Origin: Nitrospirota bacterium | Lineage (GTDB): Bacteria; Nitrospirota; Thermodesulfovibrionia; Thermodesulfovibrionales; Dissulfurispiraceae | Direction of reading: 5' to 3' | Length of the DNA: 64,000 bases | NCBI GenBank assembly: GCA_040754455.1 | Contig: JBFMCP010000002.1 | Location: 128,001 to 192,000, forward strand | Shown here: positions 1,012-57,579 of the stretch, in pieces | Position numbering within the stretch: the stretch's first letter is position 1 | Layout: each line of letters starts with the position of its first letter | Notes under the pieces: model-generated | What the model was told of the DNA's origin: nothing | The model's database searches: none | The model's input: only the letters and a program-made list of their open reading frames with translations | Translations under genes and position numbers: made by a program

Positions 1012-1111
1012 CCCCTCATACTCGATTGATGATTTCAGATTTGTGATCTATGATTATAATGTGATGCCGTTGAAAATCACAAATTGCATTCATCGATCAT
1101 CAAGCGACAAT

Positions 1112-2356
1112 CTAAAATATGCTTTTAAAATCTTCCTCTTTTACGGGACCAAGGACGGTGAGGCTCATTTTGCCCTCGTTGATGAGGCGACGGGCGAGGT
1201 CTTGCACCTGCTTGAGGGATACAGCTTCGATCTCTTTCATAATCTCATTCTGTGTAAAGTATCTTCCGTAATATATTTCTTGTCGGGCAATGCTCTGCAT
1301 CCTGTTGCTGGTCGATTCAAGACCGAGGACGATATTGCCTTTGAGCTGGTCCTTTGCCCTCCTGAGCTCGATGTCGGTCAGCGTTTCATGAAGCTCTTTC
1401 ATTTCCTTGATGATCAGCTCCGTCACCGTCTTTGCCCGCTTCTTTCCGGTGCCGGCATACACCGACCAGAAACCGGTGTCCAGATATGAAGAGGCAAAGG
1501 AGTAAATGGAGTAGGCGTATCCTTTCCTTTCACGTATTTCCTGAAAGAGCCGTGAGCTGACGCTCGACCCGAGAATGGAATTCAGTACCCCGATGGCATA
1601 CCGCTCGTCGCTCCCGAAGGGAAGGCCCTCGACGCCGAGACAAATATGGGTCTCTGAAAGATCCTTTGGAAATACGGCAATAGCGCTGTTAAACGACGGG
1701 GGTGAAAAAAGCTCGGGCTCGGAGCCCCTCCTGAGCGCCCCGAGGTAGTGGTTGAGCAGGTTCAGGACGAACTCCGGATCGAAGTTCCCTGCACAGGCCA
1801 CGACGGTATCGGCAGTGCCGTAATACTTTCTGACGTGGCTGGTGAGGTCGTCGCGGGTGAAGGTCTTGATCGTCTCCCGCCGCCCCAACACCGGCTGGCC
1901 GAGACCAGTATTGCCCCAGACGGTCTGGCTGAAGAGGTCATGGATGTAGTCGTCCGGCGTGTCCTCGACCAGCATGATCTCCTCTTTTATGACGCCCTTC
2001 TCTTTCTCGATTTCCTCTTCGGGAAAGGTTGAGTGCAAAAAGAGGTCGGAGAGCAACTCGATGCCCTTGTCGATGTATTCATCGAGCACTTTTATGTAGA
2101 AGGCGGTGTTCTCGCGCGAGGTAAAGGCGTTCAGGTCGCCGCCGAGCGAATCTATGGCAATGGCGATATCGGTGGCGGAACGCTTTTTGGTCCCCTTGAA
2201 GAACATATGTTCAAGGAAGTGGGAAATGCCGTTTTTTTCGGGCACCTCATTGCGGGAGCCCACTTTTACCCATATGCCGATGATGACGGAGCGAAAATTT
2301 TTCAGCTGCTCCATGACCACCGGCATGCCGTTGTCGAGATATTTTTTTGTAAACAT
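1112..2356 (-). CDS. M16 family (pitrilysin-like) zinc peptidase
   Basis: Inverted zinc motif HFLEH...E; usual position downstream of pnp. Start moved to MFTKKYLDNG (2356); the ORF track starts at 2419. Confidence 0.9.
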   Translation of the reverse strand: MFTKKYLDNGMPVVMEQLKNFRSVIIGIWVKVGSRNEVPEKNGISHFLEHMFFKGTKKRSATDIAIAIDSLGGDLNAFTSRENTAFYIKVLDEYIDKGIELLSDLFLHSTFPEEEIEKEKGVIKEEIMLVEDTPDDYIHDLFSQTVWGNTGLGQPVLGRRETIKTFTRDDLTSHVRKYYGTADTVVACAGNFDPEFVLNLLNHYLGALRRGSEPELFSPPSFNSAIAVFPKDLSETHICLGVEGLPFGSDERYAIGVLNSILGSSVSSRLFQEIRERKGYAYSIYSFASSYLDTGFWSVYAGTGKKRAKTVTELIIKEMKELHETLTDIELRRAKDQLKGNIVLGLESTSNRMQSIARQEIYYGRYFTQNEIMKEIEAVSLKQVQDLARRLINEGKMSLTVLGPVKEEDFKSIF

Positions 2357-2452
2357 AGTTGTGTTATGGCGTTGTAATGAACAGCGTTCGGCGTCAGGAT
2401 AAAAATAATACTGCGCCATAAGTTTGCACCTTATAGCGCAGTACGCTGAACG

Positions 2453-4570: not shown

Positions 4571-4624
4571 CAAACTCTCTTTCTATCTCTTTAGTGTGCT
4601 TTGTTCAGTGCCAGAAGGGTGTTC

Positions 4625-20295: not shown

Positions 20296-20429
20296 GACGT
20301 CGCAAATTCCAAATACGAAGCACTAAATCCTCAACAATATCAAAATTCAAATGATCAAATAATTCTGGTTTTGGACATTGGAGTTTCGTAATTGTTTAGA
20401 ATTTAGATATTAGAATTTAGAGTTTACCC

Positions 20430-21281
20430 ATGAATGCCCTTCAGAAAATGAGACATATCTCGGCCATCCTTGAAAAGAACGGGATTGAGGATGCAGCGGC
20501 GGAAGCGGAAATGCTCCTGGCTGAGGCGCTCCATATCAGCAAGGCGCGGCTGTATGCCGATACACCGGATATCCCTGAAGGCGCCGCTGTGCTGATCGAC
20601 GACTGTGTTTCTCGGCGAGTTCGGGGAGAGCCGCTTCAGTACATCATCGGTTATGTCGAATTTTTTGGATTGAGAATCAATGTGGGCAGAGGCGCTCTTA
20701 TTCCGAGGCCCGAAACAGAGCTGCTCGTCGAGGAAGCGATAAAACTCCTGAAGCGATTCACGATTCACGATTCACGGCTCACGGTTCTTGATTTGTGTAC
20801 CGGCAGCGGATGCATCGCCCTTGCCCTTGCACAGCATTTCCCCGATGCCGATGTGTATGGGGTCGACCAGTCTGAAGCAGCGTTGGTGTACGCGACGCAA
20901 AATGCACTCGAGAATAATATCAGGAACGTTCATTTCAAACTGGGCGACCTCTTTGAGCCTGTCCGCTCCCTGCACGTTGATTGCATTGTTTCCAATCCCC
21001 CCTATATCAGAAGAGATGAGATAACAACGCTGCAGCGTGAGGTAAAGGAGTATGAGCCGCTTGAAGCCCTCGACGGAGGTCCGGACGGGCTCGACTTCTA
21101 CCGGAGAATACTTGGGCAAGCACCCAAGCACCTTAGGAAAAATGGCATAATTATACTTGAGATGGGATTTGGTCAGGCACGAGATATCGAAGCGATAGCA
21201 ATAAAAGCGGGAATGGGCGATATCGAAATAATAAGAGACTATGCGGGAATCGAGAGAATATTTGTGGGAAGACGCCTGTAA
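20430..21281 (+). CDS. prmC: Release factor glutamine methyltransferase
   Basis: GEPLQYI, LIPRPETE, DLCTGSG, SNPPY. Confidence 0.96.
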   Translation: MNALQKMRHISAILEKNGIEDAAAEAEMLLAEALHISKARLYADTPDIPEGAAVLIDDCVSRRVRGEPLQYIIGYVEFFGLRINVGRGALIPRPETELLVEEAIKLLKRFTIHDSRLTVLDLCTGSGCIALALAQHFPDADVYGVDQSEAALVYATQNALENNIRNVHFKLGDLFEPVRSLHVDCIVSNPPYIRRDEITTLQREVKEYEPLEALDGGPDGLDFYRRILGQAPKHLRKNGIIILEMGFGQARDIEAIAIKAGMGDIEIIRDYAGIERIFVGRRL

Positions 21282-21287: not shown

Positions 21288-21944
21288 ATGATGGAATTCA
21301 TTGCCACCTTTATTGATATTTTCACGCACCTGGACAAACACCTGAGCATGGTGATACAGCAGTACGGCACTTTGACCTACGTCATCCTTTTCCTCATCAT
21401 TTATTGTGAAACGGGATTGGTCGTTACACCATTTCTGCCCGGAGATTCGCTGCTTTTCGCCGCGGGCACCTTTGCCGCCCTCGGCGCACTGGATGTCAGC
21501 TGGCTCTTCGGTCTCCTCGTTGTTGCCGCCTTGGCGGGGAATACGACGAACTACTGGATCGGCCATTTTATCGGACCGAAGATATTCCGCAAAGAGGACG
21601 TGCGCTTTCTGAATAGGAAACATCTCGAACGCACGCATCACTTCTATGAGAAGTACGGCGGAAAGACGATCATCATCGCCCGCTTTGTTCCGATCGTCCG
21701 TACCTTTGCTCCTTTTGTCGCCGGTATCGGCAGGATGACCTACACCCGGTTTATCAGCTACGATGTCTTTGGAAGCACCGCGTGGATCGGTGTGTGCGTT
21801 TTTGCAGGATATTTTTTCGGCAACATTCCCGTGATCAAGCAGAACTTTTCTCTCGCGATCCTCGGTGTTATTTTTATCTCGATCATGCCCGGTCTCATTG
21901 AGTTGCTGCGACATCGCTTCCATACCGCACATCCGAAATCCTAA
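21288..21944 (+). CDS. dedA: DedA family membrane protein
   Basis: ETGLVVTPFLPGDSLLF, ARFVPIVRTFAPFVAG. Confidence 0.93.
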   Translation: MMEFIATFIDIFTHLDKHLSMVIQQYGTLTYVILFLIIYCETGLVVTPFLPGDSLLFAAGTFAALGALDVSWLFGLLVVAALAGNTTNYWIGHFIGPKIFRKEDVRFLNRKHLERTHHFYEKYGGKTIIIARFVPIVRTFAPFVAGIGRMTYTRFISYDVFGSTAWIGVCVFAGYFFGNIPVIKQNFSLAILGVIFISIMPGLIELLRHRFHTAHPKS

Positions 21945-21994
21945 GCACCGAGTCCTCAACAAATCCAAAATCCGAACTGATATAATACAGAGCT

Positions 21995-24219: not shown

Positions 24220-25943
24220 GACGTCGGATTACAAAAGTAAGAATCCAGGATACAGAATCCAGAATCCAGAATAAAAAACAGAGACAACAGAATCGCTGGC
24301 TTTACATCTTTCTCTTCTGGCTCCTGGCTCCCGGCATCTGGCTCCTGGCCTGTTCCGGCCAAAACACCTCTACTGATAACGCCCCCGGTAAAGGCACTGC
24401 TCCTCGGCCCGCTCTGAATGCCGCTCCGATTATTCTTTCCATCCTGCCGGTGGAGAGCGCGGGCGCTATGTATAAGCGATTCCTGCCGTTGAAGTATTAT
24501 CTTGAGCGGTCATTGAATGTGCCTGTTGTTATACGAATCGCCAAGGATTATGAGTCCGCCATCAACGAGCTGGGAAGCGGACAGGTCCATATGGCCTATC
24601 TTGACCCGGCTGCATACTGCGAAGTCAGAGCGCGCTATCGCGGCAAGGTCACTCCATTGGTAAGAGCGGTTGCAAAGGAGAACACATCATCGCGCAGCGT
24701 GCTTGTTGCAAAAAGCGGGACGGCGATCGAGAAGATCGTTGACGTGAGGGAAAAGCGACTTGCCTTCGGGAGCCGTCAGTCCTCATTCAGTTATCTTATA
24801 CCGCTCGCCATGCTGAATGATGTTGGTATCGGCATTGAGGACCTTGCTTCTGTCGACTATCTTGAGCAGGAGGACAGGGTTGCCCTGTCCGTCCTTGTCG
24901 GAAATCATGAGGTAGGGGCCATGAGCGAGCTGGTAGCGGCAAAGTATATCGACGACGGGTTGAGGATTATCAAACGGTCGGAGATTGTCCCTCAGTTTGT
25001 CCTCTGTTCCTCGATCGGCCTTTCACCGGAGCAGAGGAACGGGATTGTCAAGAACCTTACTTCGGCGCACGGCAGAGAAACCCTCTCGGCGATTGATAAA
25101 GATATGGAGTTTGTCGCTGCTGAGGACAGGGACTTTGATGTCATAAGGGTCATGATAAAGAATCTCACCGGAAAAAACTATATAGAGTATGGGCCGAAGA
25201 CGATCAAGGTTGCCGTGCTGCCTCTCTACTCGGCGGTAACGATATACAACAAGTATGATCCCCTCATGCGTTATCTTTCTCAGTTGACGGGCTATGAGTT
25301 CAAGCTGGTAATCCCGAAGGACTTTGATGACTTTGTCGGGACCGTCAAACGAAGGGCTGTTGACTTCTCCTATCAGAACCCCTATATTTTTGCGCTCATT
25401 GACCGCGAGGTCGATATAACCCCGCTCGTCACTACGGTCGATGAATACATGGAGGCGGGAGACCGGTTCAGGGGAGTGATTATAACCCGGAGTGATAGTC
25501 CTGTAAAGGATGTGAAAGAACTGAGAAACAAGAAAGTGCTCATTACCTCACCGAAGTCGGCGGGAGGTTATCTCTCGCAGCGGCTGTTTCTCCAGCAGAT
25601 GGGCATCGATACGGAACGCGATATGAAAATCATCGATGCAAAACGTCAGGAGAAGGTTATCCTGGGAGTCTACAAGGGTGAGGCCGACGCGGGCTTTGTT
25701 CGGGAATCCGCGTTGGATGTAGTAAAAGAGGAGTTCGATATGAAGAAGATTCGGGTACTGGCCAGGACCGAGCCGCTGCCTAACTGGCCCTTTGCACTCT
25801 GCAGAGAGCTCAATCCCGCCGTGGTGCAACAGGTGAAGCGTATCCTGACCGGTCTTGACAACCCGGAGATACTCGGGCCTGCGGGAATCAAGAGGTTCAA
25901 AGTTGCTAACGAGGCTGAATTCAACGTGCTCAAGAAATATTGA
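24216..25943 (+). CDS. Lipoprotein with two tandem PhnD/phosphonate-binding-type periplasmic domains
   Basis: LLAC lipobox; two copies of the pattern LP...PL..YL...(SSFSYL/SAGGYL)...D/E.V.L.V..G..E/D.G; no ABC permease or ATPase nearby. Confidence 0.8.
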   Translation: MRRRITKVRIQDTESRIQNKKQRQQNRWLYIFLFWLLAPGIWLLACSGQNTSTDNAPGKGTAPRPALNAAPIILSILPVESAGAMYKRFLPLKYYLERSLNVPVVIRIAKDYESAINELGSGQVHMAYLDPAAYCEVRARYRGKVTPLVRAVAKENTSSRSVLVAKSGTAIEKIVDVREKRLAFGSRQSSFSYLIPLAMLNDVGIGIEDLASVDYLEQEDRVALSVLVGNHEVGAMSELVAAKYIDDGLRIIKRSEIVPQFVLCSSIGLSPEQRNGIVKNLTSAHGRETLSAIDKDMEFVAAEDRDFDVIRVMIKNLTGKNYIEYGPKTIKVAVLPLYSAVTIYNKYDPLMRYLSQLTGYEFKLVIPKDFDDFVGTVKRRAVDFSYQNPYIFALIDREVDITPLVTTVDEYMEAGDRFRGVIITRSDSPVKDVKELRNKKVLITSPKSAGGYLSQRLFLQQMGIDTERDMKIIDAKRQEKVILGVYKGEADAGFVRESALDVVKEEFDMKKIRVLARTEPLPNWPFALCRELNPAVVQQVKRILTGLDNPEILGPAGIKRFKVANEAEFNVLKKY

Positions 25944-36683: not shown

Positions 36684-36849
36684 ATAAAAGGCATCGAGTC
36701 CTTCAGTCGTTGTACTATTAAAGCAAGCGTCATTGGACATTGGTCATTAGCTATTGGTCGCTTATCAGTTGTCAGTTACTTTTACCAATGACCATTGACT
36801 ATCGACCAGTGATCGATGACTTCCTTTTGTCGAGATCGAGGATGCCTGA

Positions 36850-43055: not shown

Positions 43056-43106
43056 GCAAGGGTCCTTGCGCCCGTAACTTTTCATTACCCCTGTGAGCGA
43101 TAGACC

Positions 43107-45575: not shown

Positions 45576-45679
45576 AATAATTGGTTATCAGCCGTCAGCA
45601 AAGGGCAGAGAAAAACAGCATAAAGGTCTTTACCTATGCTGAAGGCTGATTGTTGAGGGCTATTCTGGTGGAGAAAAAT

Positions 45680-46321
45680 ATGATTGCCATTGTTGATTAC
45701 GGGATGGGAAACATAAGGAGCGTCGAAAAAGGATTCATCAAGGTCGGCGCCGGGGTGAAGGTCACGTCCGACCCCAAGGTAATCGCTGATGCGAAAGGCA
45801 TCGTGCTTCCCGGTGTGGGGGCATTCAAGGATTGCATGGCCAATCTCGACAAGCTCTCACTCCTCGACGTGATCACCAGGGAGATAGCAAAGGGCAAGCC
45901 CTATCTCGGCATCTGCCTCGGCCTTCAGATACTGTTTGCCGAGTCCGAGGAATTCGGCTTCTGCAAGGGCATGAACGTGCTCAGAGGAAAGGTGGTCAAA
46001 TTCAGATTTGATGGTAATCAGCAATCAGCAGTCAGCAATCAGCAATTAAAGATTCCACATATGGGATGGAATACGGCGCGGTTGATCAGGAAACCGCCGA
46101 TCTTCGGCGGAATTGACGATCAGTCATATTTCTACTTTGTCCACTCCTACTATGTCGTGCCCGAGGACGAGGGTGTTATTGCTGCGCGGACCGACTACGG
46201 CGTCGATTTCGTCTCGATGGTATGGAAGGATAATATCTTCGCCACGCAGTTCCATCCGGAAAAGAGTCAGGACCTTGGACTGAAGATTCTCAAGGGATTT
46301 AGCGAGTTTGTAACAAAGTGA
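45680..46321 (+). CDS. hisH: Imidazole glycerol phosphate synthase glutaminase subunit
   Basis: [40 protein letters not shown]. Confidence 0.97.
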
Positions 46322-48222
46322 GCGAACAGACCGTAAAAAGCATTATCCTCGGTACCGCAGGACATATCGACCACGGCAAAAGTTCTCTGGTGAAGGCACT
46401 CACCGGAGTCGATCCCGACCGCCTGAAAGAGGAGAAGGAGCGGGGCATCACCATAGACCTCGGCTTTGCCAGCCTCTCGTACCCCGACGGACTTTCGGTG
46501 GGGATTGTCGATGTGCCCGGACATGAGCGCCTGATCAAAAACATGCTGGCGGGTGCGGGCGGCATCGATATCCTGCTCATGGTGATTGCCGCCGACGAGG
46601 GCATCATGCCCCAGAGCCGCGAACACCTCGCCATCTGCGAGCTCCTCAAAATCAAGGACGGCATTGTCGTCGTCACCAAGGCGGATCTCGTCGATGAGGA
46701 GTGGCTGCAGCTTGTTACTGAAGATGTGCGGACTTTTGTTAAGGGAACTTTCCTCGAGCACGCGGAAATCATCCCGGTGTCGGCTAAGAGCGGTCTGAAT
46801 CTCGAGAAGCTCAAGGACAAGATACACGAGGTGGCCCGTACCGTTAAGCCGAAGCTGATCGACGGGCTGTTCAGGCTCCCGATCGATAGGGTATTTACCC
46901 TGAAGGGATTCGGCACGGTCGTGACCGGCACCGCACTGTCAGGGACTATCGCACTGGATGCCCCTGTCGAGATACTGCCCTCACGCATCAGCACCAAAGT
47001 GCGGGGACTCCAGAGCCACGGCAGGAGCGTTGATAAAGCATTTGCCGGGCAGCGCATCGGCATCAATCTCCAGGGCGTCGACAAAGACCTGCTCAAGCGC
47101 GGAGATGTGGTGGTCGATTCGGACAAGCTCGTTCCCACTGCGGTGCTGGATGCGGAGCTGGAGCTCCTTGAGGACGCCCCGCTGCTCAAGAGCAGGGACC
47201 GGGTGCATTTTTACGCAGGGACCTCGGAGACGATCGCCAGGATTGTTATCTATGACCGGGATGAGGTGAGGGCAGGCGAATCGTGCTACTGCCAGTTCCG
47301 CCTCGAAGAGCCGATCGTCGCCCTCTCCGGCGACCGGTACATCATCAGGAGGTTTTCGCCCCTCGAAACGATCGGCGGAGGGTCGATTCTCGATCCCTAC
47401 CCGATCAAGCGCAAAAGGAGCACCGGTATCGAGGACCTCATCCTTTTCAAGGAGGGGTCGCTGAGGGATAAGATCGAGGTAAAGGTAAAGAGGGCGCATA
47501 TCAACGGCTGCCGTATTGCCGAAATCGAAGGATGGATCCAGGCGAATATTCCCGAGATAAGAACAAACATCGAGCAATTGCTCAAAGAGGGTATACTGGT
47601 CAAGAGCAGCGACGTCCTGTTCCATAAGACCGCGCTGGCCGCCTTTAGAGAGGCGCTCATCGCAGAGCTCAAACGGTTTCATAAAGAGCATCCCCTGAAG
47701 CCGGGCATGACAAAAGAGGACCTGAGGACGCGCATCAGGATCTATCAAAAGGATGCCGAGAGGGTCTTCAACAGTCTGGTCGATATGGTGAAGGAAGTGG
47801 TGGTCGAGAAGGAGACGGTACGTCTCAAGGACTTCACGGTGGCCCTGACCAGCACGGATGAGGGAGTGAAGGGCAGGATCATCGCAACCCTCAACAAAGA
47901 GGGATTTCAGCCCTCATTCAAGCCCGAGCTCGCCCAGAAGCTGTCCCTTGGTGAAAGGGAGCTCGGCGATCTGCTCAAGCTCCTGACTGCGGAGGGCGCG
48001 CTGGTGCGCATCAACGATTCCCTGTATATAACGAAAGAGCAGTATGACAGGATCATCGCATTGCTGAAAGACTTCTCTTCGAAAAAGAGCGAGATGACCG
48101 TTGCGGAGTTCCGAGACCTCCTGGGCACTACCCGCAAGTATGCCCTTCCGTTCCTCGAGTATTTCGATTCCCATCGGATGACGCTGAGGGTTGGGGATAC
48201 GAGAAAATTAATGATAAAATAA
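46318..48222 (+). CDS. selB: Selenocysteine-specific elongation factor
   Basis: [31 protein letters not shown]-terminal winged helix [13 protein letters not shown]. Confidence 0.96.
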
Positions 48223-48359
48223 AAAAGAATTCAGAATTCAGGAGCCGGAAGCCAGAGTAAAGAAAAAGATCTGAACTGATTTATTCTGACTCCTGGATTC
48301 TGGCTTCCGGCTCCAGTTTTTACTACTAACAACTACGAAAGGGCAGTACAGCGAACACA

Positions 48360-49814
48360 ATGAAAAGACGGTTACTCTGGATTCCGGCCATTCTTCTGAT
48401 CGGGTTCTTATTGGGCGGCATCACCTATTATTTCCTCAGCAAGAGTATTGCGCCTACCTATATCCCGTTTACTCCACGGGTCCCTGGGTCGATCGTCGAG
48501 AGCTCGAGGGCCTTCTCCGAAATCGTGCGTGCGGTCTCTCCCTCGGTCGTCAATATATCGAGTATCAAGACACTCAAGCGCCAGCCGACCCCCTTTGATG
48601 AATTCTTCGATTTCCTCTACCCGTTTCCTGACGGCAATGCGAAGCGATGGAAAGAGCAGAGCCTCGGCTCCGGTGTCATCGTTTCTGCAGACGGCTATAT
48701 TGTCACGAACAACCATGTCGTCGAGCAATCGGACGATATCAAGGTGATCCTCTTCGACAAGCGGAGCTTCAGGGCGAAGATCATCGGAGCAGACCCCAAG
48801 ACCGACCTTGCCATCATCAAGATCAATGCGAAGGACCTCCCCGTCGTCCCCTGGGGAGACTCGGAGCGGCTCCAGGTGGGTGAGTTTGTTCTCGCGATAG
48901 GTAATCCTTTCGGCTTGCGGCATACCGTTACCATGGGCATCATCAGTGCCGTGGGCCGGGCGGATGTCGGCATTGCCGATTACGAAAATTTCATTCAGAC
49001 CGATGCTGCCATTAACCCCGGCAACTCCGGCGGGCCGTTGGTCAATATCAAGGGAGAGCTGATCGGCATCAATACCGCCATATTCTCGAAGACCGGCGGC
49101 TATCAGGGGATCGGGTTTGCGGTGCCGAGCGGCATGGTCCGCGTCGTTATGGAGCAGCTGATCAGCAAAGGGAAAGTCACCAGAGGATGGATCGGCGTCA
49201 CCATCCAGGAGCTCACCCCCGAGATCGCCCAGAAGTTCAACCTCAAGACCTCTGACGGCGCTCTGGTAAGCGATGTGGCAAAGGGGAGCCCAGCACACAA
49301 GGCAGGGATCATGAGAGGCGATATTATCCTCGAGTTTGACGGGAAAAAAATCAGCGATGTTGGTGTGCTGCGGAATATGGTCGCCCAGAGCAGGGTCGGG
49401 TCACAGGTCCCGATACGGCTGCTGAGAGGGGGCAAGGAGCTGATAGTAACGGCAACCATTACCGAGCTGCCATCGGACGGGACCGAGCCGGCGCCGGGTG
49501 CGCCGCAAAGGCCGGAAGAGGAGGGAAGCGTTCTGTCCGGAATCGCTGCCGTCGACCTTAACCGTGCCATCGCAAAGCAGCTCGGCGTCGATAAGGACGA
49601 AAAGGGCGTTGTCATCATAAAGGTCGAACCGGGGTCTCCGGCGGATGAGTCGGGGATCAGGAAGGGCGATATCATCCAGGAGATCGACCGGCAGAAGATC
49701 AACAACCTGAACGACTTCAACAGGGTCATTTCCAAGACAAAGGCCGATGATGCGGTCTTGCTGTTCATCAACCGCAACGGCAGGAAGTTCTATGTTGCGG
49801 TATCGCCGCAATAA
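48360..49814 (+). CDS. HtrA/DegP serine protease with two PDZ domains
   Basis: TNNHVV, DLA, QTDAAINPGNSGG, two PDZ domains. Confidence 0.95.
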   Translation: MKRRLLWIPAILLIGFLLGGITYYFLSKSIAPTYIPFTPRVPGSIVESSRAFSEIVRAVSPSVVNISSIKTLKRQPTPFDEFFDFLYPFPDGNAKRWKEQSLGSGVIVSADGYIVTNNHVVEQSDDIKVILFDKRSFRAKIIGADPKTDLAIIKINAKDLPVVPWGDSERLQVGEFVLAIGNPFGLRHTVTMGIISAVGRADVGIADYENFIQTDAAINPGNSGGPLVNIKGELIGINTAIFSKTGGYQGIGFAVPSGMVRVVMEQLISKGKVTRGWIGVTIQELTPEIAQKFNLKTSDGALVSDVAKGSPAHKAGIMRGDIILEFDGKKISDVGVLRNMVAQSRVGSQVPIRLLRGGKELIVTATITELPSDGTEPAPGAPQRPEEEGSVLSGIAAVDLNRAIAKQLGVDKDEKGVVIIKVEPGSPADESGIRKGDIIQEIDRQKINNLNDFNRVISKTKADDAVLLFINRNGRKFYVAVSPQ

Positions 49815-49916
49815 AGGCAAATCCTAACCACGAAACTCTAAATCCTAAATTAAGGACTTTAGGTTCAGCGTTTAGATAGTAGATTTCGGATTTTAACGAG
49901 AGGAGGTGATACAGAG

Positions 49917-50897
49917 GTGCATATACTTGCAAAGAGTGCTGTTGTCGCGATCTTTGTCATAGTAGGCTATTTTTACGGTTTCAGATACGGCTTTATTGTA
50001 GAAGGATTGGTTGCAGGACTTTTTCTCGGCCTTATCTCTCTCTTGGTCGAATCCCGCCTGCGGAGGGTCTCCTTTGGCTCTGTGCTCGGTGGCCTGGTCG
50101 GATTGGGGATGGGCCTGGTGTTCGCAGTGCTGCTGCTCTTCCCCCTTCGCTCCATTGTTACCGACGAAAACTGGGGAATCGCATCATTTGTGCTTACAGC
50201 GGTCCTTGGCTACGGCGGCCTGTTCGTCGGGCTGCAGAGGGGCAAGAATCTCACTATTCCCGCAATTATGCGGCTGTTCAAAGGACAGGAGCTCGAGCAG
50301 GACATTAAGATACTGGATACCAGCGTCATTATCGACGGCCGCATTGCAGATGTCATTGAGGCGGGATTTCTTGAAGGCACGTTCATTATTGCCCAGTTCA
50401 TCCTGCAGGAGCTGCAGTACATCGCGGATTCGCCGGACCCCATGAGAAGGGCGAAAGGAAGGCGGGGGCTCGATATCCTCCATCGCATTCAGAAGATGGC
50501 GAACATCAAGGTAAGGATTGTTGAAGAGGACTTTCCGAAGATCAAGGAGGTCGATGCGAAGCTCATCTCCCTTGCACGGCTGATGAACGGCAAGATCATC
50601 ACCAATGATTTCAATCTGAACAAGGTGGCGCAGCTCCAGGGCGTCCCGGTACTCAACATCAATGAGCTGGCCAATGTTCTCAAGCCGGTGGTGCTGCCGG
50701 GCGAAGTGCTGAACCTTTTTATCGTCAAAGAGGGCAAGGAGCACAATCAGGGCGTCGCTTACCTCGATGATGGAACAATGGTAGTTGTGGAGAATGCGAG
50801 AAGACTGATAGGAAGGAATGCCGATCTGGTGGTCACCAGCGTCCTGCAGACAACGGCGGGAAGGATGATCTTTGCACGGCTGAAGGAAGAGGAGTAA
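49917..50897 (+). CDS. PIN/TRAM-domain membrane protein (YacL-like)
   Basis: TM region, LDTSVIIDGRI, RGLDIL, TNDFNLNK, GVAYLDDGTMVVVE; precedes ispDF. Confidence 0.92.
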   Translation: MHILAKSAVVAIFVIVGYFYGFRYGFIVEGLVAGLFLGLISLLVESRLRRVSFGSVLGGLVGLGMGLVFAVLLLFPLRSIVTDENWGIASFVLTAVLGYGGLFVGLQRGKNLTIPAIMRLFKGQELEQDIKILDTSVIIDGRIADVIEAGFLEGTFIIAQFILQELQYIADSPDPMRRAKGRRGLDILHRIQKMANIKVRIVEEDFPKIKEVDAKLISLARLMNGKIITNDFNLNKVAQLQGVPVLNINELANVLKPVVLPGEVLNLFIVKEGKEHNQGVAYLDDGTMVVVENARRLIGRNADLVVTSVLQTTAGRMIFARLKEEE

Positions 50898-50899
50898 GG

Positions 50900-51061
50900 A
50901 AGTGGCAGGAGTGGGTACGGAAAGGAGCTTTCTCATGCGCAATTTATTTGAATGGATATGCCTCTCTCAATTGTAAAGATAGATGCTATCGAGGATGTGA
51001 GATCTTAGTGGAAGCTAAGGAGGCGCTAGAAAGCTCCTTTCCGTACCCACTCCTGCCACTT
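50900..51061. repeat. 162-bp element bounded by perfect 34-bp inverted repeats (MITE-like or structured RNA)
   Basis: AAGTGGCAGGAGTGGGTACGGAAAGGAGCTTTCT at 50900-50933 and its exact reverse complement at 51028-51061. Confidence 0.85.
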
Positions 51062-51087
51062 ATATAGTGGAAAGAGAATAAAAGAAT

Positions 51088-51816
51088 ATGGATCACAAGA
51101 AGGGAAAGATTGCCGCTATTGTTCCTGCTGCGGGGGTCGGGAAGCGGTTCGGCCAGGACAGGAACAAATCGCTCTATGAGCTTGCAGGAAAGCCGCTGCT
51201 GATCTGGGTGCTCGAAGCGCTCCAGGGCGTGGGGGAGATTGACGAGATCGTCCCGGTGCTCAAGGGCGAGGATATCGCGCCAGGTGCTGCATTGATAGAG
51301 CAGTATGGTATTACGAAAGTGAAGCGTGTCATTCCCGGCGGCAGGGAGCGACAGGATTCGGTTTATAACGGTCTCAAAGCTCTGGACGGCAGGGCCTCTG
51401 TTGTTGCTATTCATGATGGAGCACGGCCGCTGGCGGATGCGGAGTTGATCCGGAGGACCCTTAGGGGCCTCGGCGATTTTGATGGTGCTGTTGCAGCAGT
51501 GCCGGTGAAGGATACCATAAAAGAAGGTAAGCTCCACAGGGATGAGGAGGGGAGCGAAACTAATGAGATTGTCGTCAGGAGGACATTAGACCGTGCGGTC
51601 CTCTGGGCGATCCAGACGCCCCAGACCTTTTACTTGGAGAAGCTTAGGAATGCACACGAGAAAGCGCGTGCCGATGAATATTACGCTACCGATGATGCAG
51701 CCCTTGTCGAAAAATACGGAGGGTTGATAAGGATCGTCGAGGGCTCCTATAGGAATATCAAGGTAACCACGCCTGAAGATATCGCCATCGCGGAAGCCCT
51801 CTTGAAATGTAGATAG
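51088..51816 (+). CDS. ispD: 2-C-methyl-D-erythritol 4-phosphate cytidylyltransferase
   Basis: PAAGVGKRF, GGRERQDSV, IHDGARP, QTPQ, NIKVTTPED. Confidence 0.96.
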   Translation: MDHKKGKIAAIVPAAGVGKRFGQDRNKSLYELAGKPLLIWVLEALQGVGEIDEIVPVLKGEDIAPGAALIEQYGITKVKRVIPGGRERQDSVYNGLKALDGRASVVAIHDGARPLADAELIRRTLRGLGDFDGAVAAVPVKDTIKEGKLHRDEEGSETNEIVVRRTLDRAVLWAIQTPQTFYLEKLRNAHEKARADEYYATDDAALVEKYGGLIRIVEGSYRNIKVTTPEDIAIAEALLKCR

Positions 51817-51900
51817 CCCGTATCCGGCTCCTCACTATGCCTTCCTGAATAGAGAATCAAAATGCTCAAATTTGTTGCATTTGTTTTATAATGTAAGCCT

Positions 51901-52371
51901 ATGCGTATAGGTATCGGCTACGATTCACATCGACTTGTTGAGGGCAGAAAGCTCATTATCGGCGGGGTGGATATCCCTTTTGAAAAGGGACTGCTCGGCC
52001 ACTCCGATGGCGATGTGCTGTGCCACGCAATTATCGATGCGCTCATCGGCGCGCTCGGTGAAGGGGATATAGGAAAGCATTTTCCTGATACCGACAACCG
52101 ATGGAAAGATGCATCGAGCATTATGCTGCTCAGGCATATTGTCAATATGGTGAAGTCAAAGGGCTTCGAAATCCAGTGGATCGATGCCGTCATCATCACT
52201 GAAAGACCCAAAATGGCCCCTCATATCGATTTCATGAAAGCTGCGATTGAACAGGCCGGCATTCTCCCCTCGGTGATCAACATCAAGGCAAAGACGAATG
52301 AAGGAATGGGGTTCATCGGCAAAGAGGAGGGTATTGTCTCGCAGGCGGTATGCCTTATAAAGCAGATATAA
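51901..52371 (+). CDS. ispF: MECDP synthase
   Basis: RIGIGYDSH, GHSDGDVLCHA, GDIGKHFPD, KAKTNE. Confidence 0.97.
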   Translation: MRIGIGYDSHRLVEGRKLIIGGVDIPFEKGLLGHSDGDVLCHAIIDALIGALGEGDIGKHFPDTDNRWKDASSIMLLRHIVNMVKSKGFEIQWIDAVIITERPKMAPHIDFMKAAIEQAGILPSVINIKAKTNEGMGFIGKEEGIVSQAVCLIKQI

Positions 52372-52492
52372 CCTAATCACGATCTCAACTTCAGACCAGC
52401 AATCCATCTTTATACAGAGCTGTCCTCTTCTCTCGTCTTTCACTACACTCACTTTTTCATTTCGGATAGTATCATGAAGAAAATTAGACAAT

Positions 52493-52526
52493 AAAAAAGG
52501 GCGGGTCTTGCGACCCGCCCTTTTAT
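52493..52526. terminator. Bidirectional terminator between ispF and the porin gene
   Basis: AAAAAAGGGCGGGTC-TTGC-GACCCGCCCTTTT. Confidence 0.85.
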
Positions 52527-52552
52527 GTTACGCGTTGCCGCGTGACTGGTAA

Positions 52553-53968
52553 TTAGAAGCTGAGCTCGATACCGTGCCTTACAGCATAGGCATCATCATC
52601 AGTTGTTCCGCCAGTGATTGCTTTGACAGCATCGCCGGCGAAGAGGTAACCGCCCTCAACCCAGTAAACGAGGTTGCGGTCGATCTTGTAGGTGATCTTT
52701 CCGTCAACTTCGATACCTAAATCCTTGTCATTGTTTGTTGCGGTGATATCTTCAGATGCTCTCAGGTAATAAACGTTCACGAGAGCATTGAGGTCCTTCA
52801 TGATATCAGCGGAAGCACCAACTTTGATATACCAGGTATTGGTAATACCGGAGTTGTTGGGGCCACCTGCAGTTGCTGTGCGGTAGTCATATACATAGGT
52901 GTACTTCTGGATACCGCTCTGAAGAGTCTGGAATCCATCAATATCATCATCAGCATCAGCGTCAGGATCGTTACCGCTACCATAAGCATACTCGAGGGTG
53001 AGCTTTACCGGAGCAAGGGTGTAGTCAATGCCTACGAGGTAAGCATAGCCACTATAATCCCGATCCTGTGCTCCTGCTGCTTCACCTTCAAGCGTACCTC
53101 TCTGCAACTCAACATCGGCCCTGATGCCGAAGCCGGCAATCTTGGTCTGGCCTCTCAGGCCAAAGTTCCAGAGATGGCTGTCATTCTGCTCAGCCGGATC
53201 TACTGTAGAAACGAGTGAGTTCTGCACATCGATGTAGGTAGCATCGAAGCCGATGCTGGTATCTTTGTTGAGGTTGTAGCTGAGCAGCAATGAATAGAGG
53301 TCGCCGTCGTTGCTTGATATCCTTCTGTTGTTTGTTAATGTGCTACCAGTTAATCCAACCTGACCAGCACCCTCTGAGAGTTTTGCTGTCAGGAACTCGA
53401 CATGGAGATCTTTCATAGGATCAATGAAGACGTTGATTGCATCATCACCGAACTTCGAGTGATCATAGAAGAGACCATAGCCGAGCTTGACCGGCATATG
53501 ACCGACCTTGAAGCCTGCAGGCACGCCGAGGAGGCCTGCACCCTTGTGCTGGATCCATGCTTCGAGAATGAAGAGTTCATTCTGTTTGAGGTTGCCAATG
53601 TTGTTAAATGCATATGAACCTTTGCCTTCACCAGCCGTGGTGCCCCACTCAACATCACTGCTGTTAGTACCTGTGCCATGCTCGAGGTGGACAACGCCGG
53701 TGGTGTTTTTCGAAACATCAGCCTGGAGGCGGAGTCTTACCCTCTGATCATAGTAAGAGAGACGATCGGTATCGTCATCGTCAAAATCAAGAGTATTGTC
53801 CTGAACCTCACCTCTTACTCTGATGCTACCGCCCAGGGTGAGCTGGGTGGTGCCTTTTGCTACGACTGCCTGGGTCTCTGACGGGATGTCAGCGTGGACC
53901 GCGAAGGCACTCGCCGCAAAGCCAAGAACCAACATCATGCTTGCGACTACTGCTAAAATTTTTCTCAC
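52553..53968 (-). CDS. Outer-membrane beta-barrel porin (alginate-export-like)
   Basis: Signal peptide (ASAFA), amphipathic beta strands, YYDQRVRL, DLGIEVD, C-terminal Phe (GIELSF). Confidence 0.8.
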   Translation of the reverse strand: MRKILAVVASMMLVLGFAASAFAVHADIPSETQAVVAKGTTQLTLGGSIRVRGEVQDNTLDFDDDDTDRLSYYDQRVRLRLQADVSKNTTGVVHLEHGTGTNSSDVEWGTTAGEGKGSYAFNNIGNLKQNELFILEAWIQHKGAGLLGVPAGFKVGHMPVKLGYGLFYDHSKFGDDAINVFIDPMKDLHVEFLTAKLSEGAGQVGLTGSTLTNNRRISSNDGDLYSLLLSYNLNKDTSIGFDATYIDVQNSLVSTVDPAEQNDSHLWNFGLRGQTKIAGFGIRADVELQRGTLEGEAAGAQDRDYSGYAYLVGIDYTLAPVKLTLEYAYGSGNDPDADADDDIDGFQTLQSGIQKYTYVYDYRTATAGGPNNSGITNTWYIKVGASADIMKDLNALVNVYYLRASEDITATNNDKDLGIEVDGKITYKIDRNLVYWVEGGYLFAGDAVKAITGGTTDDDAYAVRHGIELSF

Positions 53969-54207
53969 TTCCTAACCCTCCTATGGTTAGTTCAGTATGG
54001 ACCGCCAAAGGCGGTGTACAGCAAAATGAAGATCGTAAAAACTGAGTAGTCAGAATCTGAGAACCGGACTTTGTTTCCTTCACCTCCCATGGGTGATCAT
54101 CCAGTTGCTAAAGACCGGGAAAGACAAGCTTGAAAGTTGAACGTACAATAGAAGGTTTATACCATTTCGTACACTATGCCTGTCAAGCAAAAAATAGCTT
54201 TCAGCTA

Positions 54208-54567
54208 TCAGCGGTCAGCCGTCAGCTTTTGAATAAAAGAAGTCAGCATACGTTTAACCTCGACGACCTCTCCAGCAAGCGTTTCATAATCAGACACTTG
54301 CAATAAGCCAAGATCATGTGAGAGTAATAAGTGATATTCAAGTTCGCTTGCCGAGCCGAATGCTATCTGGAGAAAGCGAGCGAATTCGATCTCACTGCTT
54401 CTTCCGCAACCTTCCGCAATATTGGCAGAAATAGAGCCGCTTGCTCGGCGGATCTGGCTTGTTAAGCCATACATTTCTTCCCTTGGGAATGTTACAGTGG
54501 CTTTGTAAACCGCCAATGTCAATTGATGGCTTTTTTGCCAGACTTTCAATTCTTTAAAATCTCTCAA
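54208..54567 (-). CDS. Four-helix-bundle protein (23S rRNA IVP / bAvd-like family)
   Basis: FKELKVWQKS, FPREEMYGLTSQIRRAS.SI.ANIAEG, FL.IA.GS.SE; TTG start with AGGAG RBS. Confidence 0.92.
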   Translation of the reverse strand: MRDFKELKVWQKSHQLTLAVYKATVTFPREEMYGLTSQIRRASGSISANIAEGCGRSSEIEFARFLQIAFGSASELEYHLLLSHDLGLLQVSDYETLAGEVVEVKRMLTSFIQKLTADR

Positions 54568-54649
54568 ACAATGCTCCTGCTGATAGCTGATGGCTGAAAG
54601 CTGATTGCTTGATTATTGTCAAAGAGCCGTATAGTAGATACGGTACGTA

Positions 54650-54664
54650 GCAACTAGTATGCCA
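54650..54664 (-). promoter_or_regulatory. Sigma54 -24/-12 promoter
   Basis: Minus strand TGGCATACTAGTTGC (GG-N10-GC), facing the four-helix-bundle and porin genes. Confidence 0.7.
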
Positions 54665-54927
54665 TAGCCTCTGGTAGGCATAACTAATTGTAATTTTAGT
54701 GGTTATCTATCAAGTGGGTGTCAAAAATTTGTGGTTATTCTGCAACAATCTGTGAATTGCGGAAACATAGTCAATATATTGACAGGAGAGCAGCTATCAG
54801 ACTATATTTTGAAAAAGACTTTATAGAAAACGCTGTTTCTCTTTGTCCTTTGCTGATTGCTGACGGCTGATAGCTGATGGCTATTTGTATCTTCATTGAC
54901 CATTCAGACCACACCGATTTATAGTAA

Positions 54928-55503
54928 ATGAGGAAAACGCACATGGCGAAGGATTTCAAATATGATCAGGCGATCGCCAAATACACGAAGATCATAGAAT
55001 CGAACCCGGAGCATTACAGCGCCTACAACAACCGTGGGCTCGCCTATTTTAAAAAGGGCCTTCACCAACGTGCATTTGCCGATTTCGATAAAGCCATCGA
55101 GCTCAATCCCGCCTTCATCCCTGCCTACATCAACCGCGGCAATGCCCACCAGGAGCTGGGGCACTACGATGTAGCAATCGCCGATTTCAACAAGGCTATT
55201 GAGCTGGACCCCGGCAACGATATGGCCTACAACAACCGCGGGTTTACCTTTCTTTTGACGGGTCGCTATGCAGAGGCTGAAAGGGATATCGCAAAGGCGC
55301 TCGAGCTTAACCCGGACAATGTCTATGCATTGAACAGCATGGCTGAACTTTATGCCATGCGCAACGATGCGGCAGAGGCCTGCACGTGGTTGAAGCGGGC
55401 TTTGGAGAAAGGGTACACCAACTGGAGCTATATCAAAACCTCGAAGACATACAACAATATCCGCAGCGCGCCCTGCTTTATGGAGATAGTGAAGGGGAAA
55501 TAA
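54928..55503 (+). CDS. TPR-repeat protein
   Basis: Repeated AYNNRG...A.ADF.KAIEL.P 34-aa units. Confidence 0.9.
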   Translation: MRKTHMAKDFKYDQAIAKYTKIIESNPEHYSAYNNRGLAYFKKGLHQRAFADFDKAIELNPAFIPAYINRGNAHQELGHYDVAIADFNKAIELDPGNDMAYNNRGFTFLLTGRYAEAERDIAKALELNPDNVYALNSMAELYAMRNDAAEACTWLKRALEKGYTNWSYIKTSKTYNNIRSAPCFMEIVKGK

Positions 55504-55509
55504 TAGAGA

Positions 55510-55584
55510 TGGTGGGCGATGAGGGTATCGAACCCACGACCTCTTCCGTGTGAAGGAAGCGCTCTCCCACTGAGCTAATCGCCC
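55510..55584 (-). tRNA. tRNA-Val (CAC)
   Basis: GGGCGATTAGCTCAGTGGGAGAGCGCTTCCTT-CAC-ACGGAAGAGGTCGTGGGTTCGATACCCTCATCGCCCACCA; cloverleaf with encoded CCA. Confidence 0.96.
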
Positions 55585-55683
55585 GTCTTTACTATTATAA
55601 ACAAAATCGGCAGCGGATGGGGAAGTTTTGGTGCCCTTTCCGTTCGGCAAGAGATCACCGTGACCAAAAGGGAGATTAATTAA

Positions 55684-57543
55684 GTGCTGTCACACAAAGC
55701 AGATGAATTTCTGGGCGGGGCCATCGGAAGCGCCCTGGAGCACTACGAGCCCCGGCATTCGCAGCGGGCGATGATGAGCGCCTGTTCCCGGATTATTGAG
55801 GAAGGGGGCACCTTGCTGGCCGAGGCAGGCACTGGCACCGGCAAGACCTTTGCGTATCTTGTCCCGATCATACGCTCCGGGCAGAAGGCGATTGTCTCGA
55901 CCAGGACCATCAATCTCCAGGAGCAGATCGTTGCAAAGGACCTGAAGTTTCTTGCCGGCCTTACTCCCTTTGAGTATGTCATAGCAAAAGGCAGAGGCAA
56001 CTATCTCTGCCTGAGAAGACTCAATGCCTTCAGACCCTCGAACGAGCAGGAGACAGAAGAGTACAAGAGCCTGCTCAGATGGGCATCGGCGACAAAGAGC
56101 GGCGACAGGGAGGACTACGGATTTATCCGATTGATGATCTGGGATGAAGTCTGCTCGGATGCGGATGCCTGCAGTGCGTTGAAGTGCGGCTTTTTCAAGC
56201 AGTGCTTCTATTTCGGCGCGCGGCAGCAATGGGAAAAGGCCCGGATCATTGTGGCGAACCATGCGCTGGTCGGCATCAACGCCCTGCTGGAGCGTGATGT
56301 CCGCATGCTGCCCCAGGCCGAGGTGCTCGTCATCGATGAGGCCCATACACTCGACGGCGTGCTTTCGGAAATAGCCGGAGTGACCCTGACTGACAGGGGC
56401 TTTGACCGCATCTTCAACAAGCTGCTGAAGCTCGATGAGCGGGGAGTGTACAAGGGACTCCTCGGAAATTCTCCCCACCTCTTCCCAGCAGTTGAATCAC
56501 TGAGGACCGAAATGGGAATTCTCTGGATTCATGCCAGAAATGAGCTGAAGCACCGGGAGACGATCAAAGGGGAGTGCGTTCTGAAGGAGCGTATGCAGGC
56601 GCTCATAACATCCATCAACGAACTGATTGAAAAGGCCAGGACGACGGTGACGGGCCTCTTCAAGGAGGATGACGAACTGGAGCTCTCGGCAGCCCTCGGC
56701 AAGCTCAAGGCCTATGCCGAGGGAATGGAGGCCTTTTCCGAAGGTATGGCCGACTACGTCAGATGGGCTGATATTGAAGAGCGGCGGATTTCCCTTCGCA
56801 TGTCGCCCATCTACTCAAGGGAGCTCATGCGCAACAGCATCGTGCCGGAGCACCGGTCGATCATCCTCACCTCGGCCACACTTTCCGTATCCGGAGATTT
56901 CAGCTTTATTACGAACGTCCTCGGGCTTGACGGCGCCGAAACGCTCACTATCCCTTCTCCCTTCGATTTCCGCAAGCAGGTTGTTGTCGATATCAGAAAG
57001 GGAATAAATCTTAAGGAGGAGCGCAGCGCAGAGAAACTGTCGGCGGTCATTCTCGAGGAGGCGGCAAGAAGAGACGGCGGGGTGCTGGTGCTGTTCACTT
57101 CGCGAGAGGTTATGAAGAGGACCTGGGAGCTTTCAGCCGAAGCGCTCGGTATCATGGGCCTCAACCCGATGATGCAGGGAGAGCTGCCAAACCGGTTGAT
57201 GCTCGAAATTATGAGAGACAGCGATAACAGCGTCATCTTCGGTCTCGACTCTTTCTGGGAGGGCGTGGATGTCAAAGGCGATGCGCTCAAGTGCCTCATC
57301 ATCACCAAGCTCCCCTTCGAGGTGCCGACGGAGCCGATCGTAAAGGCGAGGAGCGAGGAGATTGAGAAGCGCGGTGAAAACCCCTTTTATGAATACGCGC
57401 TTCCCCGCGCAGTGCTCAAATTCAAGCAGGGGTTCGGGCGGCTGATCCGTTCGAAGCGGGACAGCGGAAGGGTCGTCATCTGCGATGAGCGGATAGAGAC
57501 CAAAGCCTACGGGCGCAAATTCATGGAGAGCATCTATAAATAA
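55684..57543 (+). CDS. DinG/YoaA family Fe-S helicase
   Basis: EAGTGTGKT, KGRGNYLC, Fe-S cysteines, IDEAH, TSATL, FWEGVDV, QGFGRLIR. Confidence 0.93.
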   Translation: MLSHKADEFLGGAIGSALEHYEPRHSQRAMMSACSRIIEEGGTLLAEAGTGTGKTFAYLVPIIRSGQKAIVSTRTINLQEQIVAKDLKFLAGLTPFEYVIAKGRGNYLCLRRLNAFRPSNEQETEEYKSLLRWASATKSGDREDYGFIRLMIWDEVCSDADACSALKCGFFKQCFYFGARQQWEKARIIVANHALVGINALLERDVRMLPQAEVLVIDEAHTLDGVLSEIAGVTLTDRGFDRIFNKLLKLDERGVYKGLLGNSPHLFPAVESLRTEMGILWIHARNELKHRETIKGECVLKERMQALITSINELIEKARTTVTGLFKEDDELELSAALGKLKAYAEGMEAFSEGMADYVRWADIEERRISLRMSPIYSRELMRNSIVPEHRSIILTSATLSVSGDFSFITNVLGLDGAETLTIPSPFDFRKQVVVDIRKGINLKEERSAEKLSAVILEEAARRDGGVLVLFTSREVMKRTWELSAEALGIMGLNPMMQGELPNRLMLEIMRDSDNSVIFGLDSFWEGVDVKGDALKCLIITKLPFEVPTEPIVKARSEEIEKRGENPFYEYALPRAVLKFKQGFGRLIRSKRDSGRVVICDERIETKAYGRKFMESIYK

Positions 57544-57579
57544 GCTCTCAGCAATCAGCTGATGGCTGAGAGCTTTTTT
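57542..57579 (+). terminator. Terminator hairpin built from TCAGC/GCTGA heptamers
   Basis: AAGCTCTCAGCAATCAG/CTGATGGCTGAGAGCTT followed by a T tract. Confidence 0.75.

Follow-up and report, generated by a model that had tools for sequence, protein, structure and literature searches.

What are the tandem arrays of 7-bp period that face each other as inverted repeats at many gene junctions of a Nitrospirota bacterium, and what connects them to the gene for a small four-helix-bundle protein of family PF05635 that is enclosed by one such pair? The question is raised by a stretch of 64,000 nt, hereafter the window (G000:C2:128001-192000), of a genome of 3.27 Mb in 92 contigs (G000; other genomes are designated in the same manner). 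The closest named relatives of the HtrA protein encoded in the window are found in metagenome-assembled genomes labelled Nitrospirota, Thermodesulfovibrionales or Dissulfurispiraceae. The reading that we favor, with moderate confidence, is that the arrays belong to fast-turnover palindromic repeat elements of several families, in which a PF05635 cassette represents the gene-bearing form, i.e., an intervening sequence (IVS) outside of rRNA, and in which the gene-less hairpins are the same element minus the gene.

Enrichment and Anatomy of the Heptamer Arrays

Arrays of period 7 had been noticed along the window in a sequence-only reading, and they are real: Tandem Repeats Finder (TRF) returned 11 period-7 rows for the window, accompanied by rows of period 14 and 21, with an array at or near every coordinate that had been noted, and direct reading of all sites gave the same result. 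Genome-wide, with TRF rows as counts and three dinucleotide-preserving shuffles of the genome as controls, 347 period-7 rows were obtained as compared to 81, 61, and 60 in the shuffles (approximately 5-fold), so that the periodicity extends well beyond the shuffled expectation. Rows of period 14 (104 vs. 23, 22, and 13) and period 21 (23 vs. 4, 1, and 2) were likewise in excess, and the enrichment of periods 6 and 8 (85 and 137 rows vs. about 20 and about 78) was far smaller in absolute number.

The arrays are frequently arranged as inverted pairs. A strict hairpin scan, which accepted only ungapped Watson-Crick pairs, treated both strands alike and required at least 17 of 21 pairs, identified 302 hairpins in the genome and 49 in shuffled DNA. 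Both arms had period 7 in 99 of the genomic hairpins and in none of the shuffled ones, and all other periods together accounted for 17. As the strict filter passes only one site of the window (48235-48320), the count of 99 elements is conservative. An inverted partner, defined by a match of at least 14 of 16 positions within 160 nt, was present for 103 of 350 arrays and for one of 350 control flanks taken 2 kb away. The earlier description of a left array that "usually" faces its reverse complement is thus better worded as "often."

Each word of the 99 elements combines approximately five positions that are fixed with two that are free; the classes comprise CAGRANN, AAAATNN, AAATYCN, AAGTRAG, GTTCAYN, TCAGCNN, and GTCATTN, with 54 canonical units overall. 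Mismatches between the arms cluster in the free columns. In register, 1982 of 2325 arm positions (85%) are paired, as compared to about 70% when the arms are offset by 7 or 14 nt, although part of this gap stems from picking the best diagonal; the arms are true mirror images of each other, beyond being arrays of one word. The elements are non-random and of fixed polarity: among six word classes, the word array was followed by its complement 78 times and the reverse order occurred once. TRF copy numbers show a plateau at two to four units (116, 100, and 98 rows), followed by a fall at five (23) and above (10).

A PF05635 Gene Between Heptamer Arms

One TCAGC/GCTGA pair was reported to bracket a four-helix-bundle gene, and this gene was identified as a member of PF05635, the 23S rRNA intervening-sequence protein family (54208..54567, minus strand, 119 aa). 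The protein scores 135.2 bits against a cut-off of 33.8 and matches the structure PDB 2gsc with an E-value of 1.4e-19. The left (TCAGC) arm at 54196..54227 extends over the stop codon and the final 20 nt of the open reading frame (ORF), the right (GCTGA) arm at 54579..54609 is located 12 nt from its start with an AGGAG in between, and the bracket pairs at 18 of 21 positions. A syntenic TCAGC cassette is present in the congeneric genome G001; therefore, the window copy is at least genus-old. Just upstream of the left arm, at window position 54059-54118, contigs of the strains X4, X5, and X6 share one 22-letter replacement of 58 nt.

The arrangement recurs in relatives. In a cassette test that scored the bracket pairing between the flanks of PF05635 loci (at least 17 of 21 complementary bases) and used displaced intervals as controls, inverted arrays of 7- or 8-base units were found at 22 of the 29 best loci of relatives and at two of 99 displaced controls, and 18 of 20 further loci reached the same threshold. 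None of 20 PF05635 loci of relatives was located in an rRNA gene (0 Rfam hits), nor is there any rRNA in the window. In a tree of 30 PF05635 proteins, the clades coincide with the arm words and cut across host families: TCAGCNN is common to this genome, G096, G124, and G153, AGGCTNN to G039, G084, and G008, an 8-mer to six genomes, and AGTGAAY to two genomes. In the CACAGAA clade, G134 (family f11) and G055 (family f2) encode identical PF05635 proteins between nearly identical arms, which suggests a recent horizontal transfer or a binning artefact. In view of the concordance of clade and word across host families, gene and arms move together, and arms and protein clade travel jointly between host families.

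Cargo other than PF05635 was not found. Inverted array pairs at distances of 150-3000 bp number 10, which is no excess over the 11 direct ones, and, with the exception of the PF05635 gene, they are just neighboring hairpins. Of the suggestion that the arrays form the ends of a small gene-cassette system, the part that concerns PF05635 thus stands, and the notion of a general cargo system does not.

Two PF05635 matches are present in the genome, namely the IVS-type gene of the window and a weak one outside of it (C2:111597-111899, 41 bits; locus G000:C2:110097-113399). The second match has no heptamer arms and is located between two long near-identical repeats. From its sequence context, it looks like the Avd gene of a putative diversity-generating retroelement (DGR), in which the flanking repeats would serve as variable and template repeats.

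Gene-Less Hairpins and PF05635 Across the Order

In an order-wide sample of 201 genomes, PF05635 was matched with an E-value of 0.001 or below in 124 genomes, often in several copies, and 112 of these genomes have strong matches. The accompanying array census was made with two words only, i.e., with triple-unit hits of TCAGC and CAGRA. Genomes with more PF05635 copies have higher counts (Spearman 0.51, uncorrected for phylogeny), and at least 10 array hits were recorded for 50 of 112 PF05635-positive vs. 10 of 89 negative genomes, again with phylogeny ignored. The eight genomes in which TCAGC-type cassette arms were demonstrated all have at least 17 TCAGC hits (G000, 36; G001, 106; G096, 165; G124, 31; G153, 46; G090, 505; G043, 17; G019, 56). 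G090 is the sole strongly PF05635-positive genome among the 22 of its family and carries 505 TCAGC and 15 CAGRA hits; in the rest of the family, a single CAGRA hit was found in each of G109 and G128 and none in the other 19 genomes.

A class-free hairpin scan was applied to 400-kb stretches of six sampled genomes (158 kb for G009) and of this genome. Twelve heptamer-armed hairpins were detected in G008 and eight in this genome. In four PF05635-negative genomes, the numbers were zero, three (AT-rich and doubtful), one, and zero, and no period-7 excess was seen. By association, these distributions suggest a role for the PF05635 protein in the spread of the hairpins.

Turnover of the Hairpins Between Genomes and Strains

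The alignment of orthologous junctions, which had been named as a way to recognize cassettes, revealed junctions at which certain genomes or strains are filled while others are empty. Strains, and likewise congeners, differ by the presence or absence of entire hairpins, and one permissive site can hold different word families in different relatives.

The clearest case is the selB-htrA spacer, which contains a near-perfect and apparently young CAGRANN-class hairpin (48226..48316; fold of 48224-48320, z -6.0 against shuffles, the measure also used for the folds below). This spacer spans 137 nt in the window, compared to only 3-9 nt for 26 of 27 relatives, and the site is empty in G001 and G005. 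The htrA-PIN spacer harbors a degenerate, apparently old AAATCCT-class hairpin (49819..49894; 49815-49898, z -1.2), whose word is common to this genome, G005, and, in decayed form, G001. At this junction, at least nine of 29 relatives exhibit an inverted array pair built from at least five different words, some of them of 6 nt, and the spacer is 25 nt or shorter in five of 29; GTGAATA is found in G016 and GGTTAAG in G008, the site is empty in G013, and the downstream ribosome-binding site is kept in all of them.

An AAATYCN/NGRATTT hairpin (20304..20425) fills the prfA-prmC spacer and folds marginally (20300-20428, z -2.0). The prmC gene follows prfA in 18 of 29 relatives, and in eight of these 18 the two genes are contiguous or overlapping. 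At this position, a heptamer hairpin built from a different word (GTGAAAN) is found in G006, and a decayed spacer of 122 nt in G001, the congener of the present genome. In G008 and G028, 615 and 1240 nt of other DNA without obvious heptamer arms are located at the junction, which therefore takes other insertions too. The comEC-hisH spacer contains a gene-less TCAGC-class hairpin in the window (45585..45661; 45582-45664, z -4.2) and a longer one in the congeneric G001, and G005, G016, and G013 have an empty site. A loop inversion at this junction between this genome and G001 was considered and dropped, as the alignment scores of 17 and 14 are too weak. Two other TCAGC loops of this genome match the 45585 loop better in reverse (26-27 vs. 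12-13).

Similar differences were observed among strains when contigs of four other metagenome runs were aligned to window positions 43000-58000. In the X5 contig, which is 96-99% identical to the window, 32 letters replace 48233-48345 and bridge selB and htrA, and the palindrome is consequently missing. Around a gene-less, asymmetric TCAGC hairpin with about two units facing 4.4 (54790..54886; 54787-54889, z -0.9), X5 has 7 additional nt at 54790 and 14 at 54864, i.e., in the left and right arms of one hairpin. The htrA-PIN hairpin of X5 differs by -7 and +21 nt, and 78 letters stand for 16 in the comEC-hisH loop. The X4 contig departs from the alignment at 45581 and rejoins it at 45675, with 124 letters of its own in between. 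These differences show that arms change by whole units (7, 14, and 21 nt between near-identical strains), as expected of DNA-level elements, and that whole hairpins come and go at the scale of strain divergence. A possible gene-less form of the cassette in X5 (joints 54231->54579 and 54226->54834) was given no weight, since the shorter sides of its joints measure 21 and 29 letters and lie within repeats. The ispD-ispF spacer, which has no array in the window (51797-51910), differs as well; here, the X4 and X5 contigs carry 589 other letters for 112 nt.

Between the congeners, class composition also changes (CAGRA, 142 hits here vs. 10 in G001; TCAGC, 36 vs. 106), which looks like the outcome of family-specific bursts. 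The selB-htrA copy is apparently young and near-perfect and the copies shared with other genera are decayed (z -1.2 and -2.0), a pattern over three or four sites that is consistent with copies that arrive as clean palindromes and then decay neutrally.

Arrays Within Coding Sequences

The elements occur in coding DNA as well, in multiples of 21 nt. An AATCAGC array at 46016..46046 (plus strand) is read in-frame within hisH and adds seven residues (21 nt) in comparison to G008 and G013; it is common to G001, and in G016 the same loop of the protein contains a complete heptamer palindrome that is read in-frame. Another array, CGATTCA in 4.9 copies (20754..20787, plus strand), was identified by TRF and translation within the prmC coding sequence, in the linker ahead of methyltransferase motif I.

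For several ORFs with a 5'-proximal hairpin, the sole start codon is located upstream of the entire hairpin. In these translated hairpins, the 5' arm encodes a stretch rich in K, R, Q, and S, the 3' arm (TTCTGGC-type) encodes an F-W-L-L hydrophobic core, and a signal-peptidase or lipobox motif follows. Judged from translations, the CAGRANN class is thus apparently read as signal peptides, including that of the phosphonate-binding lipoprotein of the window (24216-25943, Pfam Phosphonate-bd). Its hairpin (24240..24349, plus strand) would provide the charged n-region from the 5' arm and the hydrophobic core from the 3' arm, with the lipobox cysteine next, and its pairing has decayed (24236-24352, z -0.5). 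Within the first 80 codons of this gene, an ATG (codon 0) and a GTG (codon 78) are the only in-frame starts. Genome-wide, period-7-encoded hydrophobic windows were found at 14 of 1579 N-terminal and two of 3495 internal positions, although about half of the 14 have doubtful ORF starts, and periods 6 and 9 exhibit no such bias. Repeat-derived signals concern a minority of the exported proteins in this genome.

Genomic Context and Strand Signature

Among the 99 elements, 54 are located in co-directional, 14 in convergent, and 13 in divergent spacers, 15 within crude ORFs, and three at contig edges. Thirteen of the 15 in-ORF elements lie within 60 nt of the crude ORF start. In co-directional spacers, the element begins a few nt past the stop codon, sometimes overlapping it, and ends about 20 nt before the next start codon.

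It had been suggested that the arrays might act as RNA hairpins at operon junctions, and the strand-specific features do not bear this out. For the 65 elements with an assignable transcribed strand, mismatches of the G·U type (48) and the A·C type (52) are balanced, and the better fold belongs to the sense strand in 30 of 65 (Wilcoxon p 0.83). Of 54 stems, 10 have a T-run behind them on the sense and 13 on the antisense strand. With balanced mismatches, equal fold energies and no T-run bias, the hairpins therefore behave as symmetric DNA objects, i.e., as a DNA-level repeat class rather than strand-specific RNA signals. The signature of an intrinsic terminator, with a T-run behind the stem in the transcribed strand, is not a property of the class, and the single fit is a short TCAGC palindrome after the helicase gene (57542..57579, plus strand; 57538-57585, z -4.0), a terminator-like exception. 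At gathering score, Rfam 15 matched the window only with a tRNA-Val and returned no family for the hairpins.

Remaining Sites and Features of the Window

Three further array sites are located in the window. A degenerate GATNNNN/NNNNATC array pair (1024..1112), recognized by direct reading, lies between the genes for an SMC-like ATPase and an M16 peptidase; it is weak or decayed, as 1020-1115 folds with z -1.0 and 31 of 200 shuffles fold as well. A one-sided array of AAATCC type (21921..21976) spans the stop codon of a VTT-domain gene ahead of murJ, and 21918-21980 has no fold. A GTCATTG/CAATGAC hairpin (36729..36820) between an oxidoreductase and a PPDK-like gene folds strongly (36725-36824, z -4.4). 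Overall, four of the ten sites that had been noted are strong, one is marginal, four are degenerate, and the one-sided site is without a fold.

The genes near the sites, as assigned by Pfam, further include PNPase, prfA, and prmC, and the window also contains genes for an MBL-fold protein, the phosphonate-binding protein, comEC, hisH, selB, htrA, a PIN-domain protein, ispD, ispF, a porin-like protein, the PF05635 protein, a TPR protein, a helicase, and gapA. The tRNA-Val (CAC) gene is located at 55510-55584 on the minus strand, between the TPR and helicase genes; hence, the 243-aa ORF on that strand is without a Pfam match. A period-8 repeat (AGAACCGG in 4.4 copies) is found in the comEC coding sequence (44179-44306), where X5 has 183 letters for 126. 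A 495-bp unit is present in 1.9 copies of 94% identity at 61628-62577, within the gene for a 617-aa surface-type protein with fn3, Flg_new_2, and Glce beta-sandwich domains.

A Model for the Elements and Its Alternatives

In the model that we favor, each arm would be a short tandem array, mostly of three to five units, of a 7-base word, with the word in the 5' arm, and in the gene-bearing form a PF05635 gene (S23p, IVS-protein, Avd-like) would be situated exactly between the arms. New copies would arrive as near-perfect palindromes and then decay. The elements may be largely selfish or neutral and would persist by landing in spacers or in tolerant protein loops, and RNase III could probably excise their long stems from transcripts, in the way demonstrated for IVSs. 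Least secure is the step in which spread would depend somehow on the PF05635 protein, which might act as a pentamer that binds nucleic acid at the heptad arms. Some copies may have been co-opted, such as the terminator-like hairpin at 57542 and the signal peptides of the CAGRANN class. A bolder version, which we put forward tentatively and regard as rather doubtful, holds that heptad-armed PF05635 cassettes are a widespread, unrecognized mobile element of which rRNA IVSs are the best-known landing site. According to this idea, the pentameric, Avd-homologous protein would recognize its own 7-base word and seed or spread gene-less palindromes, which would feed operon punctuation and in-frame signal peptides.

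Several observations weigh against the favored model. No direct trace of transposition is apparent: the loops are mostly unrelated across copies, with only 14 weak pairs among loops of at least 18 nt of the 99 elements, and these 99 share neither a conserved full-length consensus nor any near-identical copies. No target duplication was seen at the filled and empty sites compared. The loops of gene-less TCAGC hairpins match nothing within cassettes of the TCAGC class, only the arms match, and the earlier idea of scars, read as gene-less remnants of the gene, is not supported. For most hairpin classes of this genome, namely CAGRANN, AAAATNN, AAATYCN, AAGTRAG, and GTTCAYN, it contains no cognate PF05635 gene. 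Across the order, G095 has one PF05635 copy yet zero heptamer hairpins in 400 kb, and arrays occur without a strong PF05635 match in G171 (98% complete, 39 hits), G081 (45 hits), G066, and G126. Repeated occupation of one junction could instead reflect selection for a hairpin at that position, and RNase III cleavage is assumed by analogy with other organisms.

Among the alternatives, one invokes selection on functional RNA. Here, the hairpins would punctuate operons as RNase III sites, mRNA stabilizers, attenuators or terminators, in agreement with their placement a few nt past a stop codon and about 20 nt before the next start with an intact ribosome-binding site, with the terminator-like 57542-57579, and with the cleavage of the analogous IVS stem by RNase III (PMC4990558); hairpins of different words at htrA-PIN and prfA-prmC in several relatives could likewise be products of convergent selection. 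However, the 48 G·U-type vs. 52 A·C-type mismatches, the equal fold energies of both strands and the T-run frequencies (10/54 sense, 13/54 antisense) weigh against it, 13 of the 99 elements lie in divergent spacers and others within coding sequence, the selB-htrA site is empty in a near-identical strain as well as in 26 of 27 relatives, old copies have lost their pairing (z -0.5 to -1.2), and no Rfam family matches, so that we judge this explanation to be quite unlikely. The fixed word positions and the strict period, in which three units equal 21 bp and may correspond to about two helical turns, would also be compatible with a host regulator or nucleoid protein that binds duplex DNA at 7-bp intervals. 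Many unrelated words in one genome, translated copies in coding DNA, and rapid gain and loss make such binding sites very improbable.

Ordinary simple-sequence repeats, generated in place by polymerase slippage together with local template switching, would require neither mobility nor any involvement of PF05635. An excess of heptamer repeats has been reported for many bacteria, with slippage as the proposed cause (PMC4692102), and the whole-unit differences between strain arms, the unrelated loops, the 54 canonical units among 99 elements, and the arrays in some PF05635-negative genomes are what such a process might leave behind. It would not readily account for a word order that is fixed at 78 to 1 in six classes, for the recurrence of few word classes across genomes, or for a whole palindrome of 80-110 nt that is present in one strain and absent from another. 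Class-specific bursts between congeners, the concordance of protein clade and arm word across host families, and the lack of a period-7 excess in the four sampled PF05635-negative genomes also argue against slippage, which we therefore consider unlikely, and the multi-family palindromic element with a PF05635-bearing form is retained as the preferred explanation.

Relation to Known Systems and Significance

A close likeness was found in the IVS of Coxiella burnetii, for which an S23p ORF and a terminal stem of 28 bp that RNase III cuts are described, with the element being called selfish; three to four GACAGAT heptamers, strain-variable in number, are located beside the start of the S23p ORF (PMC4990558). 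The same study cites the structure of a Xanthomonas S23p homologue as a pentameric toroid. The remark that short tandem repeats have been noted beside four-helix-bundle genes could be traced solely to this Coxiella paper. Both there and in the window, a PF05635/S23p gene lies in the loop of a long terminal stem with strain-variable heptamers. In contrast to the IVS as described, the elements of this genome are located outside of rRNA, have arrays in both arms and are present in about 100 gene-less copies between and within genes.

Convergent pairs of GGGAATC arrays on opposite strands were reported for Xanthomonas campestris and X. axonopodis (70 and 75 cases), which are mostly intergenic, nearer to the end of the upstream gene, and variable between related species (Rehm et al., 2015; PMC4692102). 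The elements described here share with them the two closely spaced, opposite-strand arrays of tandem 7-nt units and a mainly intergenic location. There, however, one G-rich word was studied for G-quadruplexes, and here many words without G-tracts occur; the fixed 5'-arm polarity, the link to a PF05635 cassette, and the translation into signal peptides set the present elements apart from that account. TAACTGA direct repeats of Beggiatoaceae, cyanobacteria, and Bacteroidetes are likewise tandem heptamers of two to six units and mostly intergenic, and their patchy distribution suggests horizontal spread (MacGregor; PMC4679880). They are described as direct and upstream of start codons, with one inverted case in 170 sets (PMC4679880), whereas the inverted pair is characteristic here.

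As abundant intergenic palindromes that fill spacers, the hairpins also resemble repetitive extragenic palindromes and bacterial interspersed mosaic elements with their REP-associated tyrosine transposases (REP/BIME-RAYT) and MITEs (miniature inverted-repeat transposable elements). They differ in that no full-length sequence is shared, no target duplication was seen and the associated gene encodes a four-helix bundle instead of a transposase. Cyanobacterial short tandemly repeated repetitive (STRR) sequences are further comparable tandem heptamers. PF05635 was reported to resemble Avd (PMC10053308), and the second, weak match of this genome lies in a DGR-like repeat pair. Unlike a DGR, the window cassette has no template or variable repeat and no reverse transcriptase was seen beside it, and the Avd-like copy is without heptamer arms. 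Among the papers listed by literature searches, with supplements excluded, there was none that unites heptamer or other tandem repeats with IVSs or four-helix-bundle proteins beyond these partial precedents.

If the link between arrays and PF05635 holds, one type of element would join three questions that have so far been treated separately, namely the over-representation of heptamers, the nature of rRNA IVSs with their S23p ORFs and the function of a very common protein family. The strain comparison indicates that intergenic spacers can turn over fast between strains that are 96-99% identical. For genome annotation, the caution is that a hairpin may itself be translated, with the start codon located upstream of it, and the translated arrays offer a concrete route by which a repeat may create the N-terminal export signal of a protein.

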